Source: an uncultured Actinomycetota bacterium (GTDB lineage: Bacteria > Actinomycetota > UBA4738 > HRBIN12). From it: a stretch of DNA of 64,000 nt. Both the position numbers and the translations under genes were made by a program. Shown here piece by piece: positions 13,133-39,699 of the stretch. The notes under the pieces were generated by a model that searched no databases, was not told the origin of the DNA, and saw only the letters and a program-made list of their open reading frames with translations. The stretch's first letter is position 1; each line of letters begins with the position of its first letter. The stretch is from the NCBI GenBank assembly GCA_963702405.1, contig CAVPCM010000011.1, forward strand, positions 19,764-83,763, read 5' to 3'.

Positions 13133-13798
13133 ATGGGGAACTTCACGGCGCTCGGGCTCCGACTCGCAGCCTACATGCTCGTCTCCCTGTTCATCGGGAT
13201 GACGCTCCGCGAGTACGCGCGCGCCCGGGCGGCCGCGGCGCTCGGCGACCCCACCCCGCGGCTGTGGGGCCGGATCACGCTCCGACCGAAGCCGTGGTTC
13301 GACCCGTTCGGGAGCGGCTTCATCGGCGCGATGGTGGCGCTGCTCTGGACCGTGCAGGCGTTCATGATGCCGGCGGCGTACGCGAAACCGGCACCGATCG
13401 ACACGAACTACCTGAGGCGTCACCCCCGTGACGTCGTCCTCGTCTCGCTCGCGGGTCCGGTCGCGTCGCTCGCGCTGGCCGTGCTCGGGGGGATCGTGAT
13501 CCGTGCCGGCGTCGGGGGTCAGGTGGGGCTCGCCTTCCTGACGTTCGTGTTCACGAACGTCTCGCTCATGGTGTTCCATCTCCTGCCGATCCCTGGCCTC
13601 GACGGCGGCCGGCTGCTGGCGCTGCTGCTTCCCCCACACGCGCGCGAGGTGTTCCGGAACGCGGACCGGTACCTCGCGCTGATCGTCCTCGTGGTGTTGT
13701 TCCTGTTCACGTTCCTCCTCGGCGTCGCCAGGCTCCTTGCCGGCGCGGTATGCGACGCCCTCTCCGGCGTGGACTGCTCGGGCCTCTTCCGCTTCTGA
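13133..13798 (+). CDS. site-2 protease (M50)-like membrane protein with a degenerate zinc motif
   Basis: Multi-TM topology and M50-like architecture. The expected HExxH position reads REYAR. Confidence 0.55.
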   Translation: MGNFTALGLRLAAYMLVSLFIGMTLREYARARAAAALGDPTPRLWGRITLRPKPWFDPFGSGFIGAMVALLWTVQAFMMPAAYAKPAPIDTNYLRRHPRDVVLVSLAGPVASLALAVLGGIVIRAGVGGQVGLAFLTFVFTNVSLMVFHLLPIPGLDGGRLLALLLPPHAREVFRNADRYLALIVLVVLFLFTFLLGVARLLAGAVCDALSGVDCSGLFRF

Positions 13799-23078: not shown

Positions 23079-23115
23079 GCCGCGGACCCTCGACGCTCGA
23101 CTGATACTCCAGCGC

Positions 23116-23173
23116 AGGTCGAGGGTCACGGCCGAGCCAGGTCGAGGGTGACCGGAGGAGCGAGGTCGAGGGT
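23116..23173 (+). repeat. three direct repeats (C)AGGTCGAGGGT at 23-24 bp spacing upstream of the FHA (garA-like) gene
   Basis: Read directly at 23116-26, 23139-49 and 23163-73. Confidence 0.6.
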
Positions 23174-23188
23174 ACGGCGAAGGCTCGG

Positions 23189-23217
23189 TTGACCCTCCTC
23201 ACCTGCTGCGATAACGT
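23189..23217 (+). promoter_or_regulatory. candidate sigma-A-like promoter TTGACC-17-TAACGT for the FHA gene
   Basis: Read directly. The repeats lie immediately upstream of the -35. Confidence 0.4.
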
Positions 23218-23293
23218 CCCCGACGCGTCGAGGTCGACGGTTGCCCACAACATCGAACGTCGACACCAGGTGGGGGAAGAGGGGAAGCAGACG

Positions 23294-26954: not shown

Positions 26955-27440
26955 TCAGCCGTAGAAGAAGACGGTCACCCAGAGCAGGCCGTCGTCGTCC
27001 CGGTAGGTGCCGAGCGCGACGCGCCGGAAGCGCTCGTTGATGATGTTGGCGCGGTGGGGGGAGGACTTCATGAACGCTTCCTGCAGATCCGCGACCGACC
27101 CACCGGTGACGCCGACGTTCTCGCCCCACGTCGACCAGCTGACGCCCTTGAGGTAGTAGCTGGCGGGATCATGGGTGTGGAAGAGCTTGCCGAACCCTCC
27201 GGTGCCATCCGGCGTGGTCGCCATCTTGAGGCTGTGCTTCCGAGCGAGTCTCGAGATCTGCCAGTGGATGCCCACGCGTCGGATGTCATGGTGCACCCGA
27301 CTGTTGTTGGTGGCTCGGTACATCCGGGCCCTGGGCGAGAGCGTCGCGGCGCCCGCCGAAGGGGGAGCGAGCGCGGTCAGGCCCGTCATGAGAGCCGACA
27401 CGAGGGCGATCCTCGTGAGTGCGGTTCGGGTTCGTGTCAT
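26955..27440 (-). CDS. secreted CAP/SCP (PR-1-like) domain protein, paralog 1
   Basis: Signal peptide. GENVG...EAFMKSSPHRANI...FRRVALG...LWVTVFFYG. Confidence 0.75.
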   Translation of the reverse strand: MTRTRTALTRIALVSALMTGLTALAPPSAGAATLSPRARMYRATNNSRVHHDIRRVGIHWQISRLARKHSLKMATTPDGTGGFGKLFHTHDPASYYLKGVSWSTWGENVGVTGGSVADLQEAFMKSSPHRANIINERFRRVALGTYRDDDGLLWVTVFFYG

Positions 27441-31400: not shown

Positions 31401-31855
31401 CGATGAGACGGGGTCTGGTCGGGGCCGTCAAGGTCCTGGGACTCACGCTCGCCCTCACCGTCGTGTTCGGCGCGCTCGCGCCAAGTGCACGAGCCGCCTG
31501 GACCCCTCGCCGCGACATGCTCGGCTGGATGAACACCGCGCGGAGCGATCACGGGCAGGTCGTCTTGGACCGTGGCTGGCGGCTCCGGGCGGTGGCGGAC
31601 GAGCACAGCCGACAGATGGCATCTGCCGGAAGGATCTTCCACACCGCTTCACTCGGGTCCACGCTCACGTCCGTGTCGTGGAACGTGGCGGGGGAGAACG
31701 TGGGAGCGGGCGGCAGCATGCGGGCGCTGTACGAGGCGTTCATGAAGAGCGACCCTCACCGGGACAACATCCTCGGAAGGGGATTCCGTCGCGTCGGCGT
31801 CGGGGTGTACGCGCACGGCGGGTTCCTCTGGGTGACGCTGATCTTCGTCGGCTGA
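31401..31855 (+). CDS. secreted CAP/SCP (PR-1-like) domain protein, paralog 2
   Basis: AAGGAGG RBS and signal peptide. GENVG...EAFMKSDPHRDNI...FRRVGVG...LWVTLIFVG, paralogous to 26955-27440. Confidence 0.75.
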
Positions 31856-31924: not shown

Positions 31925-34699
31925 TTACGCGGCCTCGCGCTCCGGCCGGCGCTTCCGGGTGGTCGCGACCACGGTCACGCCGATCCCGAAGAGCACCATC
32001 GAGATGATCCCCAGCCGTCCGGCGTCCGATCCCGTGAACGGGGTCGGCGGGTTCGGCGGGGTCGCACCGGCGATCGGGGTCACGATGGCGTCGTCGTCGG
32101 AGCTCACCGACCGGCCGAGGATGTCCTCGCCGGTCGCCGTGCCGACGTTGGTGACGGGAACGTCACCCACCACGAAGTCCTTCGTCAGCGTGGCGGACTC
32201 CCCGGGCTCGAGGACCGCGATGTCCCCGACGTGTCCCAGGATGTCGTCGTCGACGCTGATGTCGTACAGCGTGGTGTCGCCCGTGTTCGTGACGACGTAG
32301 GTGTAGGTCACGGTCGTGCCGATCGGCACCGTGTCCTCGTCCACCGTCTTCACGATCTCGATCGCGGGGTGGATCAGGTCCGTGACGCAGTTGGCCAGGG
32401 CCTCCACCGCCGCGCGGCTGCCGACGCCCGAGCCCTTCGCCGTGACTTCGTTGACGACGGGGTCCGGATCGCTGTTCAGCACCACGTAGTCGAAGTCGTG
32501 CGACTCGGACGCACCCACCGCGAGCTCGTCCGCGAAGGATGCGGACAGGTCGCCGAGGATCGTGTCCATGACGGTCACGCCGTCGAGATCCTCATCACCC
32601 GTGTTCGTCACGGTGATCGTGTAGGTCACCGTGTCGCCCGCGTGCGCCAGCTCGGTGCAGCTCTTGGTCACGCCGATCGACGGGTTGAGGATGTCGGTCT
32701 CGCAGGACGCCTCGTCCGAGGCCTCCACTCCCGAGTCCGCGCCGTCGCCCGTCGCGGTCACCGTGTTGGTGATCGGGTCGGGGTCACCGGCCTGCGGCGA
32801 GTAGGTGACGACCGCTGTAGCCGTCGCACCCACCGGGAACGGGTTCGAGAAGTCGAAGTCGAAGTCGTCCGTGATATCACCCAGGAGGGTGTCGTTCACG
32901 GTGACGCCGACCAGCGCCTCGTCGCCCGTGTTCTCGACGGTGACCGTGTACTCGATGTCCTCACCGAACGGCACCTCGAGCGGGCACGTCTTCTCGACGT
33001 CGATGTCCGGCTCGTGGGTGACGTCGGTCTCGCACTCGTCGGTGTCGGTGTCGGTGACACCGGAGTCCACCCCGTCACCGGAAGCGGTGACCGAGTTCTC
33101 GACCGGGTCCTCGTTGGCGCCCGGCGTGTAGACGAAGTCGTGCGAGTACACGGTGTTGCCGACCGGCAGCGGGTCCGGCAGGTTGAACGCCGCCGTGATG
33201 TCGCCGCCCAGCAGGGCGTCGGTCACGGAGACGTTCTCGAGCGGCTCGTTGCCGGTGTTCTTCACCGTGATCGTGAAGGTCACGTCGTCACCGAACGGCA
33301 CCGACCGCGGGCACGTCTTCTCGACGTCGATCCCGGGCACGTGCGTGATGTCGGTGTCACACGTGTCGGTGTCGGTGACCTGGGTGCTCGAGAATACGCC
33401 GTCCGCCGTGACGGTCACCGTGTTCGGGAGTGGGTCCGGGTCGTTCGCATCCGGCGTGTAGACGTACTGTGCCGAGTCCGATGCGCCGGCCGCCAGCGTG
33501 TCGGCGAAGAGGTTCGAGATGTCGTCGGGAGCGTTCCCGTTCACCGTGTCGGTGACGACGATGTTCTCGAGATCCTCGTTGCCGTTGTTCGTGATCGTGA
33601 TGTCGTAAGTGACGTTGCCACCGAGGGCCGCCGCCGCCGGGCAGGTCTTCACGATGTCGATCGCGGGCTCCGCGACGAACCCGGTGGACTTCATCGGAAC
33701 CGTCTGCTGCCCGACCGGGATCGTGTCGTCGCCGTTGCTCGACACCCGGCCGGACTCGATCGCGTTGAGGATGTTCCCGGTGGGGGTCTCACCCTGCATG
33801 CAAGTGAGTTCCGCGATCAGCCGGAGGATCACGACGTCGCCGGCATCGAGCCCCTCGATCTCGACCGTGCCGGTCACCTGGTCGTAGCCCGAGGAATCGA
33901 ACCCCTCGGCGATCAGGGTCGCCGACTCGTCGCCGTCGAGGTTCTTGTTCCCGTCATCCGGCGTGTTGATGTCGACGCTGATGATGTCGTCGAAGCCGAG
34001 TCCGGGCTGGCCGGTCGTCTCGGCGCCGAACGTGTAGTCCAGCTCGATCGTGCCACCTGCCGCGGCGCCGGAGTCCACCGTGATCTCCGTGAAGAAGGTC
34101 ACGTAGTCCCCGCACTCGAAGTCGCCGGCCTCCAGCGATTCCACGACGCCGTTGGACTTGCTGATGGTCCGGTTGTCGTACCCGAACTGCGGGTGCGTGC
34201 CGAGACCGGTGGCGTGGTCGTACGTGAACGGCCCGGCCGCGACGTAGTCGAGGTCGATGTCGCCACCGTCGAGTTCCGACGCGGGCGGTGCCGCCGGAGC
34301 CGCGATCGCGGTGGTCCGGTTGACACGAGCGACGTTGATCTGGCCCTTCCGGGCTTCGCCCGCCCCCGTTGCCGCCGCTCCGGTGCCCGAGGTGTCCCCG
34401 TCGGCCTCAGCCGTGGGAGCCTCTTCTGCCGGAACCTCGGCGGGAGCCTCCTCAGCCGGAGCCTCCTCGACGGGAGCCTCCTCAGCCGGAGCCTCCTCTA
34501 CAGGAACCGTGCCTTCCCCCGTGCTGCCGTCCGAGAGGGCTTCCTCGGCGGCGACGGGATCGGTGCCGGCGTCGTCTGCCAGCGCGCTCAGCGAGCTCTG
34601 TCCGAGTGCGAACGCGAACAGGAGCACGAACGAGACGAACGAGGCAAGCCCGCGCTTGGTTCGGCGCCGGCTTTGCCGAGAGTTCGTTCTGGTACCCAT
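31925..34699 (-). CDS. large secreted surface protein with tandem DUF11 repeats and C-terminal PFTG sorting signal
   Basis: Signal peptide and AEEAP repeats. At least 5 DUF11-like modules (I..KTCP...V.Y.ITV.NTG.E.L..V.V.D.). C-terminus TPFTGSD + TM + RKRR. GGTGGAGG RBS. Confidence 0.8.
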   Translation of the reverse strand: MGTRTNSRQSRRRTKRGLASFVSFVLLFAFALGQSSLSALADDAGTDPVAAEEALSDGSTGEGTVPVEEAPAEEAPVEEAPAEEAPAEVPAEEAPTAEADGDTSGTGAAATGAGEARKGQINVARVNRTTAIAAPAAPPASELDGGDIDLDYVAAGPFTYDHATGLGTHPQFGYDNRTISKSNGVVESLEAGDFECGDYVTFFTEITVDSGAAAGGTIELDYTFGAETTGQPGLGFDDIISVDINTPDDGNKNLDGDESATLIAEGFDSSGYDQVTGTVEIEGLDAGDVVILRLIAELTCMQGETPTGNILNAIESGRVSSNGDDTIPVGQQTVPMKSTGFVAEPAIDIVKTCPAAAALGGNVTYDITITNNGNEDLENIVVTDTVNGNAPDDISNLFADTLAAGASDSAQYVYTPDANDPDPLPNTVTVTADGVFSSTQVTDTDTCDTDITHVPGIDVEKTCPRSVPFGDDVTFTITVKNTGNEPLENVSVTDALLGGDITAAFNLPDPLPVGNTVYSHDFVYTPGANEDPVENSVTASGDGVDSGVTDTDTDECETDVTHEPDIDVEKTCPLEVPFGEDIEYTVTVENTGDEALVGVTVNDTLLGDITDDFDFDFSNPFPVGATATAVVTYSPQAGDPDPITNTVTATGDGADSGVEASDEASCETDILNPSIGVTKSCTELAHAGDTVTYTITVTNTGDEDLDGVTVMDTILGDLSASFADELAVGASESHDFDYVVLNSDPDPVVNEVTAKGSGVGSRAAVEALANCVTDLIHPAIEIVKTVDEDTVPIGTTVTYTYVVTNTGDTTLYDISVDDDILGHVGDIAVLEPGESATLTKDFVVGDVPVTNVGTATGEDILGRSVSSDDDAIVTPIAGATPPNPPTPFTGSDAGRLGIISMVLFGIGVTVVATTRKRRPEREAA

Positions 34700-34989
34700 C
34701 CTCCACCCCCCAACTGGTGTCTGTGCTACTTCGTTGCCCTATGGACCCGGTCGACGCCCTACGGCGTACACCGTGGTCCTCTTGCCCAGAAAGGTAACCC
34801 CTCCATCCGGGGGACACATCGGGCGAACGGCCTCGCCGCTCCTGGCAGACGGAGTAGTCCGTTCGGAGGAGCGAGAGCGTGCAGGAAGCTCACTGTTGCG
34901 CGAGGCAGAAACATCGAGCACGTGCGGAAGGATCGGGGAGGAGCCAGATCGACCGGGCCCGACGACTGGTTCCCGGCTCTCGGGTTGCT

Positions 34990-37053
34990 CTAGCTGTCGG
35001 CCTCGCGACGCCTGCGGGAGGCTGCGAGCAGCAGGAGCGATCCCACCACGGCGATCGCCGCGGCCCAGCCCGAGAGGGTGCCCGTGGCGGAGCCCGTGAA
35101 GGGGTTCCCACCCGCCGCCCCGTCTCCGCCGTCTCCACCCGCCCCGCCTGCGACCGCTGACACGGTCACCTCGTCGACATCGCTCACCGATGCCCCGAGC
35201 ACGTCGGAGCCCGTCGCGGTGGCGACGTTGGTGATGGGGGAGGAGCCGAGGGTGATCTCGAACGTCAGCTCGCTACTCTGACCCGCTGCGAGAGAAGCGA
35301 TGTCGCCGACGTGCCCGACGACGTCGTCGTCGACCGAGATGCCGAAGAGGGTCGTGTCGCCCGTGTTCATGACGGCGTAGGTGTAGACGATGATGGTCCC
35401 GGCCGGACCCGATGTCGGACTCGCCGACTTCTCGATGTCGATGTCGGGGTGGATCAGGTCGATGTCGTGCGTATCGGTGTCGGAGACGGTTCCTCCATCG
35501 TGAACCCCGGTCACGGTGGCCTGATTGTGGACGGGGTCGCCGTCGGCCGCCACGATCGTATGGTCACACGCGAACGCCCAGCTCTCGTCCACGGCGAGGA
35601 CGGCGTCGCCGTTGCCGTCGTCCGTACGATCCGGTGTGGTGTCGCAGCGCGCGTCCGTCAGGTCGATGTCCGTCAGGTCGACGCCTCCCGTGTTGGTCAC
35701 GGAGAAGGTGTAGGCGACGGTGTCGCCGACGTGCGCGAGCGCCGGGCCGCCCTTCCGGAGCCTGATCCGCGGCGCGCACGCGATCTCATCCGAAGCCTCG
35801 GCATGGTTGTCGGGACCGATGTTCACGGTGGGCTCGTTGGTGCCCTCGACATCCACGACGTTCGTGATCGCACCGCACTCCTTGCCCGTCACGGAGACCC
35901 TGAACGCGACCGAAGCGGAATCGCCCGGTCCGAGCGTGATGGGGCCGCAGTTGACCGTCGCCTGGGCGATACCGCCCGGTGGGATGGAACTGGCGATGAC
36001 ACACGGGTGCCCGTCGAACATCGGGAAGGGCGAGACCGAGATGCTCATCGCATCCCCCGGCGGGAGCGCGTCGATGAGTTCGACGCCCGTGGCCTGCACG
36101 TCGCCGATGTTCGTGACCATGATCGTGTAGAGGAAGGAGTCTCCTTCGTGGAGGATCCCACCGGCGTCCGATGTCTTCGTGACCTGGAGATCCGGCGGGC
36201 CGGGCTCCTCGCACTCGACCGAGTTGCTCGCCTCGTTCGAATCGTTGCTCCCGGCGGCCTGCTCCGTCTCGTTCGCCGCCGAGACGTGCGCATCGTTCAC
36301 GATCGGACCGCAGAACCCGTCGTCGACCGTGACCGCGATGTCGAGCGAGACGTTCGCACCGGCGCCGATGTCACCGAGCGCGCAGGTGACCAGGCCGGCC
36401 ACTTCGTCGCAGCCCGCGGTGGCATCGGCGAACGTGACGCCCGCCGGCAGCTGATCGGCGACGTGCACGTCGCTCGCGGTGGCGGTGCCGTCGTTGGACA
36501 CCGACAGGGTGTAGGTGATCGAGTCGCCGTTCTGGACGATGCCGCCCGGATCGTTCACCTTCACGACGGACACGTCGGGTTCGGGCGGCGCGTCGTTCCA
36601 GCAGATGGCGAGGTGGCTCACCGAGTAGTAGCCGCCATCCGGCTTCTGCGGGCTGTGGAGGTCGTGGTCGCCGGTATCGCCCGCCGGATAGGCGAACAGC
36701 TCGCCGCCGCTCGGTCCGCCCTTCACGTAGACGCCGTGCACCGGAAGGGGCGAGGACCAGTCCGCGAACCCTGTCGGGCTGTTGTAGCCGGTGGCGGTGA
36801 CCGTCATGGCGCCGCTGGACGCCTGGCCGTTGCTCGCGATCGAGATCCCGTGATCGAAGCCCAGCTGGCCGCAGTCGTCGTTCGAGGACTGGGTGTCGGC
36901 GATGACGGGGATGACGCCATCGGCGGAAGGCGGGCCGGGGGAGTCCACGGGCGGTGCCGCTTCGGCCGTCAGGATCCCCGCTTGACCGGCGAGGAGCGCC
37001 AACGCCACGATCGGTCCCAGGAGTCCCCGGCGCCGATGCTTCCGTCCCTCCAT
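34990..37053 (-). CDS. large secreted surface protein with DUF11 repeats and C-terminal NPFTG sorting signal (paralog)
   Basis: Start chosen at MEGRKHRRRGLLGPIVALALLAG (AGGAGG RBS 7 nt upstream). The last DUF11 module is clearly paralogous to the upstream gene. C-terminus NPFTGS + TM + RRRR. Confidence 0.75.
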   Translation of the reverse strand: MEGRKHRRRGLLGPIVALALLAGQAGILTAEAAPPVDSPGPPSADGVIPVIADTQSSNDDCGQLGFDHGISIASNGQASSGAMTVTATGYNSPTGFADWSSPLPVHGVYVKGGPSGGELFAYPAGDTGDHDLHSPQKPDGGYYSVSHLAICWNDAPPEPDVSVVKVNDPGGIVQNGDSITYTLSVSNDGTATASDVHVADQLPAGVTFADATAGCDEVAGLVTCALGDIGAGANVSLDIAVTVDDGFCGPIVNDAHVSAANETEQAAGSNDSNEASNSVECEEPGPPDLQVTKTSDAGGILHEGDSFLYTIMVTNIGDVQATGVELIDALPPGDAMSISVSPFPMFDGHPCVIASSIPPGGIAQATVNCGPITLGPGDSASVAFRVSVTGKECGAITNVVDVEGTNEPTVNIGPDNHAEASDEIACAPRIRLRKGGPALAHVGDTVAYTFSVTNTGGVDLTDIDLTDARCDTTPDRTDDGNGDAVLAVDESWAFACDHTIVAADGDPVHNQATVTGVHDGGTVSDTDTHDIDLIHPDIDIEKSASPTSGPAGTIIVYTYAVMNTGDTTLFGISVDDDVVGHVGDIASLAAGQSSELTFEITLGSSPITNVATATGSDVLGASVSDVDEVTVSAVAGGAGGDGGDGAAGGNPFTGSATGTLSGWAAAIAVVGSLLLLAASRRRREADS

Positions 37054-37371
37054 CTTTCCTCCTGGTCCGTTTCGCGCCATGTCGGGGCACAGAACCCTCT
37101 GTCGGCCGGTCGACCCACACCCTACGGGGGGAGGGGGGACGGGGACATCGGCCGGAAGACGCGGACCATCAGCCCGATGCTTGGGCCAGATACCGGACGG
37201 AGCTTCGCATCCACCTGGGGCGGAAGCAAGAACGACGATCAGCCCCCGATGTGTCGGGTGGATCGCTCGGACGCCCATCGGCCGGGGGAGGGAGAGGCCA
37301 CAGGGGTCGTTCCCAGGGAAGTTACATAATGAGCGTTATCGGGGTAGCGGACGCGAGGGCCGCTCGACATC

Positions 37372-39699
37372 TCATGCGGCGGACGGCCCTCCTCGGTACG
37401 GCCTCCCGGTCGCTCTGAGCGCGATGCCCCAGCGGGTGACGAGCCAGAGCGCCTCAACGACGATCCGCCGCGAGAGCTTCGAATGACCGTGTTCCCGTTC
37501 GCGGAACGTGATCGGCACCTCGCCGATCGACCAACCCCGGAGCCAGGAGCGCATCACGAGCTCGACCTGGAAGCCATACCCGTCGGCGTGGAACGGCTCG
37601 GCGACGAGGTCCGATAGCAGCTCGCGACGATATACACGGTAGCCGCTCGTGGCATCGTGCACCGGCACGCCGAGCATAAGCCGCGCGTAGGCGTTGCCCA
37701 CCCTCGAGAGCGCCAGGCGCAACCGGCTCCAGTTGGTCACGGAGCCTCCGGGTACGTACCGGCTCCCCACCACGAGGTGAAAGCGGTCGCGGGCGCCGGC
37801 CAGGAGGGCATCGAGCTGCACAGGATCGTGGGAGAGGTCGGAGTCCATCTCCACGATCAGGTCGTACCGCTCCTCGAGCGCCCTTCGGAAGCCCTCCTGG
37901 TAGGCGCTCGCGAGCCCAGACCTCGCGGGTCGTTCGACGAGGCGGAGCCGTGGCTCCCCCGCCATCAGCTCCCGGACGATCCGTGCGGTGCCGTCGGGTG
38001 AGGAGTCGTCGACGACGAGCGCGTCCACGCCCGGATGCTCGAGCACGCCGGCCACGACGTCACGGATCGTGGCCGCCTCGTCGTAGGTGGGCAGGATCAC
38101 GAGCGAGCGAGCGCCCTCGGCGAGCGGCTCGGGGTCGGGCCACTCGCGACGGCGACCCCGCGGCACCACGGCGAGACCCGCCACGATCACCAACGAGAGG
38201 ATGGGCAGCCAGTCCCCCAGTCGCACCGACCACGTCTGCTCCGACGAGGCCCGGATCGTGTGCCGGATCAGCGCCGGCTCGAACAGCTCGGTCTCATCGT
38301 GGACGCGGCCCGTCGGGTCGATGAACGCGCTGATACCCGAGACGGCCGCGTGCACGATCCACCTGCCGTCCTCGATCGCACGGAGCCGCGACATCTGCAG
38401 ATGCTGGGCGGATGCGGCCGTGCGGTCGTAGGACGCGTTGTTCGTGAGGACCACGAGGAACTCCGCGCCCTGACGGACGAGCTCGCGATCGAGCGCCGGG
38501 AAGCTGTTCTCGAAGCAGATCGGCGCTCCGAACTCAGGGAGCCCCGGTGCAGTCAAGGTGTGGAGTCGCTCCCCTGGCGTGAGCTCGTAGGCGATCTGCT
38601 CGAGCGCGGAGATCCACCCGACGACGGGCTTCCAGGGGATGTACTCCCCGTACGGGACGAGGTGGGTCTTCCTGTACACGTCGACCACCGCTCCCCCGCC
38701 ATCGAAGACGACCGCCTGATTGAACAGCGCATCGCCTCCCTTCCCCGATCGGATGTCCTCCGAGGTGGCCCCGGTGAGGACCGGCGTCCCGACGTCCGCG
38801 ATCGAGCTCCGCACCTCGTCGAGGATCGAGAGCGAGCCCGGATCGAGGGCGCTCTCTCCCCAGACGGCCAGATCGGGAGGATCGCCGCTCAGCGTCGCAT
38901 GGAGCTCGAGGTTGAGCCTCGTGACCGCGACGTCTCCTTCCTCCCTCGACCGTCCTGTGACCCCTTCGAGGAAGTCGACCTGGATCGCGGCCACGTCGAT
39001 CTCCCGCCCGGAAGCCTCCGCGAAGGGGATCGCCGCCGGTCCCAGCGTGGCGATCGCCGCCAGGCCGATGGCGGTGAGCCGCGTCGGCGCCCCCTCCGCG
39101 CCGGCGGCCTCCACGACGAGCGCGGCCGCGAACGCCACCGCGAACGTGACCCCGAACACCCCGGCGAGGACGGCGAGGCGAACCGTGACCGGGTTGGCCA
39201 CCTGCGAGGCGCCGAGGGAGCCCCACGTGAAGCCCCCGAGCGGCCAGAGTCCCCGGAGCCAGTCGATCGACGTCCACAACGCCGCCGCCCCGAGCGCGTT
39301 CAGCATCGGATGGCCCGACCGACGTACCAACGGCAAGCAGGCACCGAACAACGCCACGGACGCCGCCGTGAGCACCGTCAAGGCGCTCCAGGCGAGGGTG
39401 CCGAAGAGCTGGAGCCACGAGAGCGTGAGTCCGAAGCCGACGAGTCCGTAGACGAGCCCGAGGGCGAAGCCCCGGGCCGGTGTGGCGTTCCGGAGTCCGA
39501 TCAGGAGCAACGCGGGAGCGACGAAGGCGAGCGGCCAGGCGGCAACGGGCGGGAACGCGAGCGAGGACAGCACGCCCCCGACGAGGGAGAGGGTGAGCGC
39601 GACCGGCAGCCTGGGATCGATCAGGCGCAGTCGCGGCAGAACATCCGCCGTTTGTCCGCGAGCTGGCTGCGATGTTTCACCAGGTAGCAGTTCTTGCAT
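37372..39699 (-). CDS. ppm1: bifunctional apolipoprotein N-acyltransferase-like / polyprenol-monophosphomannose synthase (Lnt-Ppm1 fusion as in M. tuberculosis Rv2051c)
   Basis: N-terminal multi-TM plus CN-hydrolase (Lnt) domain. C-terminal GT2 DPM1-like domain (LPTYDEAATI...VVDDSSPDGT...EMDSDLSHDP). Annotated ATG start overlaps the upstream gene by 79 nt, so the true start is uncertain. Confidence 0.8.
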   Translation of the reverse strand: MQELLPGETSQPARGQTADVLPRLRLIDPRLPVALTLSLVGGVLSSLAFPPVAAWPLAFVAPALLLIGLRNATPARGFALGLVYGLVGFGLTLSWLQLFGTLAWSALTVLTAASVALFGACLPLVRRSGHPMLNALGAAALWTSIDWLRGLWPLGGFTWGSLGASQVANPVTVRLAVLAGVFGVTFAVAFAAALVVEAAGAEGAPTRLTAIGLAAIATLGPAAIPFAEASGREIDVAAIQVDFLEGVTGRSREEGDVAVTRLNLELHATLSGDPPDLAVWGESALDPGSLSILDEVRSSIADVGTPVLTGATSEDIRSGKGGDALFNQAVVFDGGGAVVDVYRKTHLVPYGEYIPWKPVVGWISALEQIAYELTPGERLHTLTAPGLPEFGAPICFENSFPALDRELVRQGAEFLVVLTNNASYDRTAASAQHLQMSRLRAIEDGRWIVHAAVSGISAFIDPTGRVHDETELFEPALIRHTIRASSEQTWSVRLGDWLPILSLVIVAGLAVVPRGRRREWPDPEPLAEGARSLVILPTYDEAATIRDVVAGVLEHPGVDALVVDDSSPDGTARIVRELMAGEPRLRLVERPARSGLASAYQEGFRRALEERYDLIVEMDSDLSHDPVQLDALLAGARDRFHLVVGSRYVPGGSVTNWSRLRLALSRVGNAYARLMLGVPVHDATSGYRVYRRELLSDLVAEPFHADGYGFQVELVMRSWLRGWSIGEVPITFREREHGHSKLSRRIVVEALWLVTRWGIALRATGRPYRGGPSAA

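Follow-up and report, generated by a model that had tools for sequence, protein, structure and literature searches.

CLIPPER-repeat surface proteins of uncultured soil Actinomycetota end in a probable sortase-type signal with the consensus [T/S]-[P/A]-F-T-G

Two adjacent genes for CLIPPER-repeat proteins

A 64,000-nucleotide stretch of contig CAVPCM010000011.1 from an uncultured Actinomycetota bacterium (hereafter the window, meaning the whole stretch of DNA that was analysed) has a G+C content of about 70% and carries on its minus strand two adjacent genes, A and B, which code for predicted secreted surface proteins made of repeated modules. Both proteins end in a PFTG-type pentapeptide followed by a hydrophobic helix and a basic cluster, a tail that is likely to be a variant of the wall signals processed by sortases. 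The features of the two genes are listed below (ORF, open reading frame; aa, amino acids).

31925..34699, minus strand: gene A, CLIPPER_2-repeat surface protein, predicted secreted (ORF of 924 aa; Pfam and NCBIfam matches)
34577..34699, minus strand: signal peptide of gene A (aa 1-41, ending in ...SLSALA before DD; read by eye)
33668..34294, minus strand: head domain of gene A, a conserved beta-sandwich (aa ~136-344)
32060..33667, minus strand: stalk of gene A, five CLIPPER_2 (DUF7507) modules (Pfam PF24346, 5 stretches; PF01345, 5 stretches)
32030..32044, minus strand: pentapeptide TPFTG of gene A (aa 886-890; compared in 108 distinct homologue tails)
31946..32014, minus strand: hydrophobic helix LGIISMVLFGIGVTVVATT (aa 896-914) and RKRR (aa 915-918) of gene A
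34990..37053, minus strand: gene B, CLIPPER/CLIPPER_2 surface protein, predicted secreted (ORF; Pfam and NCBIfam matches)
35092..35106, minus strand: pentapeptide NPFTG of gene B (aa 650-654; mostly SPFTG in orthologues)
35005..35076, minus strand: hydrophobic helix LSGWAAAIAVVGSLLLLAAS (aa 660-679) and RRRR (aa 680-683) of gene B

The product of gene A is composed of a signal peptide, an acidic linker of VEEAP/AEEAP repeats, a head, five modules of about 108 aa each (aa 345-454, 455-563, 564-672, 673-777 and 778-~880), a Pro-rich spacer and the TPFTG signal. Each module contains a Cys pair, and the N-terminus is kept in two relatives (L001 and L002). The ORF of gene B spans 34990..37278 on the minus strand, with a likely start at 37053 that yields 687 aa, in line with the genes called there in relatives, which measure 686-692 aa; these orthologues sit directly upstream of the gene A orthologues. 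In gene B, the signal peptide is followed by a small Cys-containing N-terminal domain, four modules, a Gly-rich spacer and the NPFTG signal. The signal peptides of A, B and their orthologues show a basic n-region, a hydrophobic h-region and an Ala-x-Ala-like site (by eye). Since the last module and tail of A and B share 45% identity over 148 aa (E = 7e-37), the two genes are paralogous.

Much of this had been described in an earlier note on this DNA, which was made from the sequence alone and reported two adjacent minus-strand genes of 924 and about 688 aa with signal peptides, acidic AEEAP linkers, multiple DUF11 modules and paralogous final modules. Its coordinates and reading frames are right, the linker is found in gene A, and Pfam and NCBIfam assign the modules of both proteins to CLIPPER/CLIPPER_2. 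The proteins are, however, of middle size and not “giant” as they were called there.

The matches are strong for both proteins: 4e-48 (A) and 1.6e-41 (B) for DUF7507/CLIPPER_2, 1.7e-32 (A) and 4e-35 (B) for DUF11/CLIPPER in Pfam, and 2.9e-38 (A) and 3.6e-30 (B) for TIGR01451 in NCBIfam. With PF01345/PF24346 scores of 112.6-162.2 bits (the cut-offs being 24.6 and 27) and three to five stretches per protein, A and B belong with the CLIPPER adhesins. DUF11 was renamed CLIPPER in 2025, when crystallography showed it to be a CnaA-like immunoglobulin (Ig) domain with a Lys-Asn isopeptide bond (PDB 9IFR; PMC12617251). The residues of the isopeptide triad stand at the expected places in each module (the Lys of I-x-V-x-K, the Asp of V-x-V-x-D and the Asn of N-x-V-T), and the CLIPPER/CLIPPER_2 modules are probably locked by Lys-Asn bonds as well. 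A and B share with the known CLIPPER (DUF11)/CLIPPER_2 (DUF7507) fibrillar adhesins both the tandem CnaA-like Ig modules with their Lys/Asp/Asn positions and a stalk with a head at its N-terminal and an anchor at its C-terminal end (PMC12617251; PDB 9IFR). They differ from them in that the anchor is a variant sortase signal and the head has no Pfam family.

The head domain of gene A (about 200 aa) has no Pfam match. Its fold is that of the sortase-anchored pilins and adhesins of Gram-positive bacteria such as SpaP, BcpA, RrgB and SpaA. This is consistent with a wall-anchored adhesin and also keeps alive a role in a pilus. The sequence T-V-P-x-K is invariant in 23 of 23 aligned homologues (gene A aa ~337-341, nt ~33680-33690; positions 198-202 of alignment A2) and lies where the head domain passes into the first module of the stalk. 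It bears a faint likeness to the YPK pilin motif; alternatively, its Lys could take part in an intramolecular isopeptide bond.

Conservation and distribution of the tail

The tail of A reads TPFTG-SDAGR-LGIISMVLFGIGVTVVATT-RKRR-PEREAA and closes the protein with ...PPNPPTPFTGSDAGRLGIISMVLFGIGVTVVATTRKRRPEREAA, the pentapeptide starting 39 aa before the C-terminus. That of B reads NPFTG-SATGT-LSGWAAAIAVVGSLLLLAAS-RRRR-EADS (C-terminal end ...AAGGNPFTGSATGTLSGWAAAIAVVGSLLLLAASRRRREADS), and here the distance is 38 aa. A query of a 5.8-billion-protein collection with gene A returned at least 120 homologues. The best 120, which were listed, are 44-98% identical to it and all come from metagenome-assembled genomes (MAGs) of uncultured “Actinomycetota bacterium” or from soil metagenomes. 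All 113 that have a complete C-terminus share the same ending. In the 108 distinct A-type tails among the homologues, the pentapeptide is made up of T in 107 (V in one), P in 104 or A in 4, F in 108, T in 107 and G in 108, and is followed by S in 105 and D in 100, while the Pro/Asn-rich spacer upstream of it varies. The PFTG motif is thus not due to chance. The earlier note had named loss of the tail in orthologues as grounds for giving up its proposal; the orthologues keep it.

A scan of 185,579 GTDB species with the pattern P[PTG]TPFTGSD gave 32 stretches, which correspond to 24 loci. All lie in MAGs of uncultured soil Actinomycetota except for one weak match (E = 3e-4) in a Candidatus Sabulitectum MAG. 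The clade is therefore a small one. A scan of JGI metagenomes added 18 further loci. The arrays of about 40 related loci contain 2-5 CLIPPER genes per genome, each of which ends in [T/S][P/A]FTG followed by the helix and the Arg cluster. The A-type tails read TPFTGSD, whereas the B-type tails mostly have SPFTG and less often TPFTG or SAFTG. NPFTG is seen only in gene B of this window and is absent from the related loci, so that of the (N/T)PFTG motif proposed earlier, the Thr form is conserved and the Asn form is a singleton. More distant relatives have orthologues in the same syntenic slot that read TAFTG or VAFTG. Where the first position of a scanned match is Thr or Ser, the protein is almost always of the CLIPPER_2 family.

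Between A-type and B-type tails, the pentapeptide and the layout are common but the helix sequence is not. The motif is thus kept while the helices diverge completely, which is what a sortase signal predicts. Within the A-type, conservation amounts to 82% in the tail versus 80% in the neighbouring last module. The idea of a special intramembrane recognition through the conserved A-type helix was dropped, since the adjacent module is as well conserved and the B-type helices differ.

In several long-read MAG contigs (L011, L014 and L031) the CLIPPER genes are split into 2-5 ORFs, and in L014 the array lies on both strands. Homopolymer or indel errors in the assembly of these repetitive, high-GC genes are the likely cause; alternatively, real pseudogenisation or rearrangement may have taken place.

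What kind of signal the tail is

The tail has the complete layout of a sortase signal in both proteins, as the earlier note had proposed on seeing PFTG, one hydrophobic helix and an R/K-rich end. T-G occupies motif positions 4-5 at a distance from the C-terminus that agrees with the 17-45 residues usual for such signals, the second position holds Pro or Ala, a hydrophobic helix of 19-20 residues leads to RKRR or RRRR at the C-terminus, and A, B and their orthologues all start with a secretion signal (again read by eye).

When a profile made from 20 tails (alignment A1) was used for an HMMER search of 1.84 billion representative proteins, it returned 57 matches. These form a graded series, which starts with TPFTGSDAGRLG in the clade itself and TAFTGSDA(A/L)RLG. 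It then passes through actinobacterial LAFTGSD/LAFTGSDGGRL, LPFTGSDAGRLG and LPVTGSDAGRLG (examples are RLAFTGSDGGRLALFG, GLPFTGSDAGRLGAIAA, SLPVTGSDAGRLGAVG and LPFTGADLARLG) and ends with LPQTG, LPHTG, LAVTG, LAATG and LPLTG tails. The simplest reading of this series is that the tail would descend from an ordinary LPXTG/LAXTG signal in which the Leu of the first position (P4) gave way to Thr or Ser and the Phe of the third (P2) became fixed.

The closest known counterparts are the LPXTG/LAXTG signals of class E enzymes, such as SrtE1 and SrtE2 of Streptomyces coelicolor with the long chaplins (PMC5148588). They have in common with the present tails the scissile T-G pair, Pro or Ala at the second position, a segment of the “GSDAGRLG” type after the cleavage site, a single helix, an Arg-rich end, the phylum and an enzyme that is unlinked to the genes of its substrates. 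Ala at the second position is a hallmark of class E signals (PMC5148588). In contrast to these signals, the present tails have Thr, Ser or Asn and not Leu at the first position and a fixed Phe at the third, which is otherwise free, and they score below cut-off with the curated profile hidden Markov models (HMMs) for anchors. The Leu-Ala of LAXTG is not found: Leu never occurs at the first position in the clade, and Ala at the second is a minority that is seen as TAFTG or VAFTG in outgroup orthologues.

Class B signals are comparable in other respects. NPQTN/NPKTG and the (S/P)PXTG of Clostridium difficile SrtB (PMC4155245, PMC5118464) have a polar or small first residue, Pro at the second position and the T-G cleavage site. 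Taken literally, the class B patterns NPXTG and SPXTG describe the NPFTG of gene B and the SPFTG of most of its orthologues. The general pattern to which they belong, [N/S/P]-P-x-T-G, covers neither the TPFTG of the A-type nor the TAFTG variants. Moreover, the class B systems are found in Bacillota, and the listed motifs do not include TPFTG. Both the fixed Phe and the actinobacterial type of downstream segment point to descent from LAXTG/LPXTG and not to class B substrates. A polar first motif residue has a precedent, since SrtB of S. aureus (SaSrtB) reads the Asn of NPQTN through Thr177, where the matching pocket of SrtE1 is non-polar (PMC5148588).

The motif had been presented as unusual in the earlier note, and it does depart from LPXTG/LAXTG with its T, S or N at the first position. 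NPXTG, SPXTG and PPXTG are, however, already among the listed sortase pentapeptides (PMC13251363). What is new is a first-position change confined to this lineage (TPFTG), the fixed Phe and the occurrence in Actinomycetota, whereas SPFTG and NPFTG fit known class B patterns. In the literature on “PFTG” together with “sortase”, only LPFTG-type instances were found.

The search for a sortase

No sortase was found in the 64-kb window or in 49 other fetched loci (about 0.67 Mb in all). These comprise 26 loci from related genomes or assemblies (0.52 Mb), read as slices of about 20 kb around the loci, and 23 more (5 contig look-ups and 18 JGI contigs; 0.16 Mb). The search combined a six-frame scan for TLxTC with phmmer runs using S. 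aureus SrtA, SrtE1 (5cuw) and SavSrtE (5go5), which gave nothing below E = 0.1 in the window. The TLxTC matches of the window were rejected, one lying in a non-coding leader (TLLTC) and one in a shadow ORF. The Pfam-annotated gene lists of the related loci contain no sortase. In Pfam, ambiguous ORFs and those for membrane proteins, taken from the window and from a non-syntenic locus (L024), matched MctB, GT4, an M50 peptidase, Lnt-Ppm1, CAP and others, and no sorting enzyme. Likewise, there is no linked sortase at the relatives with variant tails, namely P0037 (VAFTG), P0140 (TAFTG), P0148 (LAFTG; a SpaA/VWA pilus-like locus in another organism) and P0159 (LPQTG). No gene for an exosortase or a rhombosortase lies in the window, as had been noted before, and no exosortase or rhomboid gene lies there or among the Pfam-annotated neighbours.

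The earlier remark that no sortase lies nearby is therefore correct for the window, but it says little, since the genes of housekeeping sortases do not normally lie next to those of their substrates and their absence from a locus is uninformative. The genes of class E sortases are usually situated near the replication origin, in the crgA-pknB region. In Actinoplanes missouriensis, five sortase genes are found at separate loci (PMC13251363).

The window itself shows signs of a different position. Its predicted genes lie on the plus strand to the left of about 31.9 kb and on the minus strand to the right, thus converging, and the cumulative GC skew peaks near 44 kb. This suggests that the CLIPPER array adjoins the replication terminus. 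No match to an actinobacterial dif consensus was found in the window.

Proposed mechanism and alternatives

Four things were observed directly: how the genes and their domains are built, that the motif is conserved, that it passes gradually into canonical signals, and that no sortase is linked to the genes in the loci that were read. Together with the comparisons above, they make it reasonably likely that A and B are stalk-like surface adhesins of uncultured soil Actinomycetota and that their tails act as sortase-type wall signals with the consensus [T/S]-[P/A]-F-T-G. On this model, the precursor would be exported by Sec and retained in the membrane by its hydrophobic helix and Arg cluster. 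A membrane sortase encoded elsewhere in the genome would then cleave between Thr and Gly, form a thioacyl intermediate and transfer the protein to the lipid II peptide. The result would be an adhesin covalently bound to peptidoglycan and stiffened by isopeptide bonds, with its N-terminal head held away from the cell by the rod of CLIPPER/CLIPPER_2 Ig-like modules. The cognate enzyme would most likely be a class E or class F-type sortase with a more polar pocket for the first residue. It is a tentative and somewhat doubtful extension of this model that the clade carries a sortase re-specified at this pocket for a small polar residue, with a preference for Phe at the third position, which would represent a new specificity among class E/F-like sortases. 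Such an enzyme might be dedicated to this family of CLIPPER adhesins and orthogonal to the LPXTG/LAXTG enzymes.

Several points weigh against a sortase-type signal. Leu at the first motif position is near obligatory for enzymes of classes A, C, D and E and is expected for class F too, yet A-type tails have Thr (once Val) there and B-type tails Ser, Thr or Asn. For tail A, none of the curated models of sorting signals gives a match even at E = 10. Tail B remains below the cut-offs of TIGR01167 (13.9 bits, cut-off 15.9) and PF00746 (15.1, cut-off 20), and these sub-threshold matches extend over its helix and RRRR. No sortase accompanies the genes in the loci that were read. Finally, the variant signal appears so far to be tied to the CLIPPER family alone, and its portability between protein families is conjectural. 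The scores of tail B can also be read the other way: it is just under the cut-off for NF058582 (“Microco_LAVTG”) as well, and scores so close to the thresholds of curated LPXTG-anchor models were counted as support for a sortase-type signal.

The restriction of the motif to one protein family also favours a different arrangement, in which the tail is not cleaved, the C-terminal helix acts as a membrane anchor and PFTGSD is a juxtamembrane element with some other role in folding, glycosylation or docking. No sortase was seen in the loci that were read, and the similar conservation of the last module and the A-type tail means that tail conservation alone needs no enzyme. However, an uncleaved anchor would leave aside that the invariant T-G, the spacer of 5-10 residues, the helix and the Arg cluster reproduce the exact geometry of a sortase signal, that A and B keep the pentapeptide where their helices have nothing in common, and that the motif grades into canonical LPXTG/LAXTG tails. 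We consider this arrangement unlikely. The same grading bears on the proposal that the tail is the tag of a non-sortase system, i.e., of an exosortase/archaeosortase-like, rhombosortase-like or undescribed enzyme. The layout of motif, helix and Arg cluster is common to the PEP-CTERM, GlyGly-CTERM and PGF-CTERM tags, and the sub-threshold scores with curated sortase-anchor models would suit such a tag. However, the CTERM models give no match (VPEID-CTERM comes closest, at E = 0.55), exosortase and rhomboid genes are missing from the window and the annotated neighbours, and the profile likeness runs to LPXTG/LAXTG tails and not to other types of tag, which makes a non-sortase system very improbable.

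Sortase-dependent pilus assembly would keep the enzyme but change the acceptor. A-type proteins would form the shaft or tip and B-type proteins the base, and the Thr of [T/S]PFTG would be joined to a Lys of the next subunit instead of, or before, the wall. The fold of the head domain is compatible with this. However, pilus loci almost always carry a class C sortase, and neither the window nor any of 48 related loci has one at a distance of up to about 10 kb. The YPKN pilin motif is missing too (there is no YPK or PKN in A or B, only the invariant VPxK), as is an E-box in the module sequences. A and B are thus without all three features that distinguish sortase-assembled Gram-positive pilins such as SpaA, BcpA, RrgB and CppA. 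In addition, the locus lies in a conserved housekeeping neighbourhood and not in an island. A pilus therefore appears quite unlikely, and anchoring of the adhesins to the wall is the reading that we retain.

Implications

No new kind of biology is involved, since architecture, domains and probable mechanism all belong to types that are already known. These tails escape detection by TIGR01167, PF00746 and the lineage-specific anchor models of NCBIfam, and the main predicted wall-anchored adhesins of the clade are thus annotated only as “DUF11/TIGR01451 repeat protein”, which a small dedicated HMM would mend. If a [T/S]PFTG-specific sortase exists, it would show how first-position specificity evolves within Actinomycetota, and it would provide a natural orthogonal pair of enzyme and tag for protein ligation (“sortagging”).

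Neighbouring genes and other observations

The array is bordered by the following genes, which provide synteny context only.

37372..39573, minus strand: upstream neighbour, Lnt-Ppm1-type GT2 fusion (Pfam LNT_N, CN_hydrolase, Glycos_transf_2)
31403..31855, plus strand: downstream neighbour, secreted CAP/SCP-domain protein (Pfam PF00188)

The Lnt-GT2 fusion has a polyprenol-phosphate-mannose-synthase-like domain, as is the case in mycobacterial Ppm1. Nearly all related loci have its gene immediately upstream of the CLIPPER array; it is not considered part of the mechanism. The CAP gene at 31403-31855 is always tail-to-tail with the last CLIPPER gene, distant relatives included. It is one of two genes for small secreted CAP/SCP (PR-1-like) proteins that flank the gcvP genes, the other being at 26955-27440 (minus strand). 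Across the clade the order is DUF4193, Lnt-Ppm1, CLIPPER genes, CAP, gcvPB, gcvPA, MerR, CAP, BFN, hpt, dacB, MerR, garA and gcvH; the array is thus surrounded by conserved housekeeping genes.

Upstream of the garA-like zinc-ribbon/FHA gene, a stretch at about 23105-23250 (plus strand) translates to the same “ARLTLLTCCDNVPDASRSTV” across several species. It is seen at the same place in six related loci (L001, L003, L005, L009, L012 and L016) and mimics the TLxTC motif of sortases in a regular-expression scan. This stretch probably serves as a 5' leader or a regulatory element that has been conserved; at gathering thresholds, Rfam gave nothing in it.

The Peptidase_M50 (site-2 protease) match mentioned above (3.2e-9) belongs to a multi-pass membrane protein of 221 aa encoded at 13133-13798 on the plus strand. 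It is the only intramembrane protease of the window and lies 18 kb from the locus, and no evidence of a connection between the two was found. At the far end of the window, between 50.9 and 64 kb on the minus strand, translations inspected by eye indicate a putative complete Pup-proteasome neighbourhood of the actinobacterial type, with a partial Mpa/ARC, Dop, Pup, PrcB, PrcA, PafA and PafB/C, after which come putative TatA/TatC and a large helicase.

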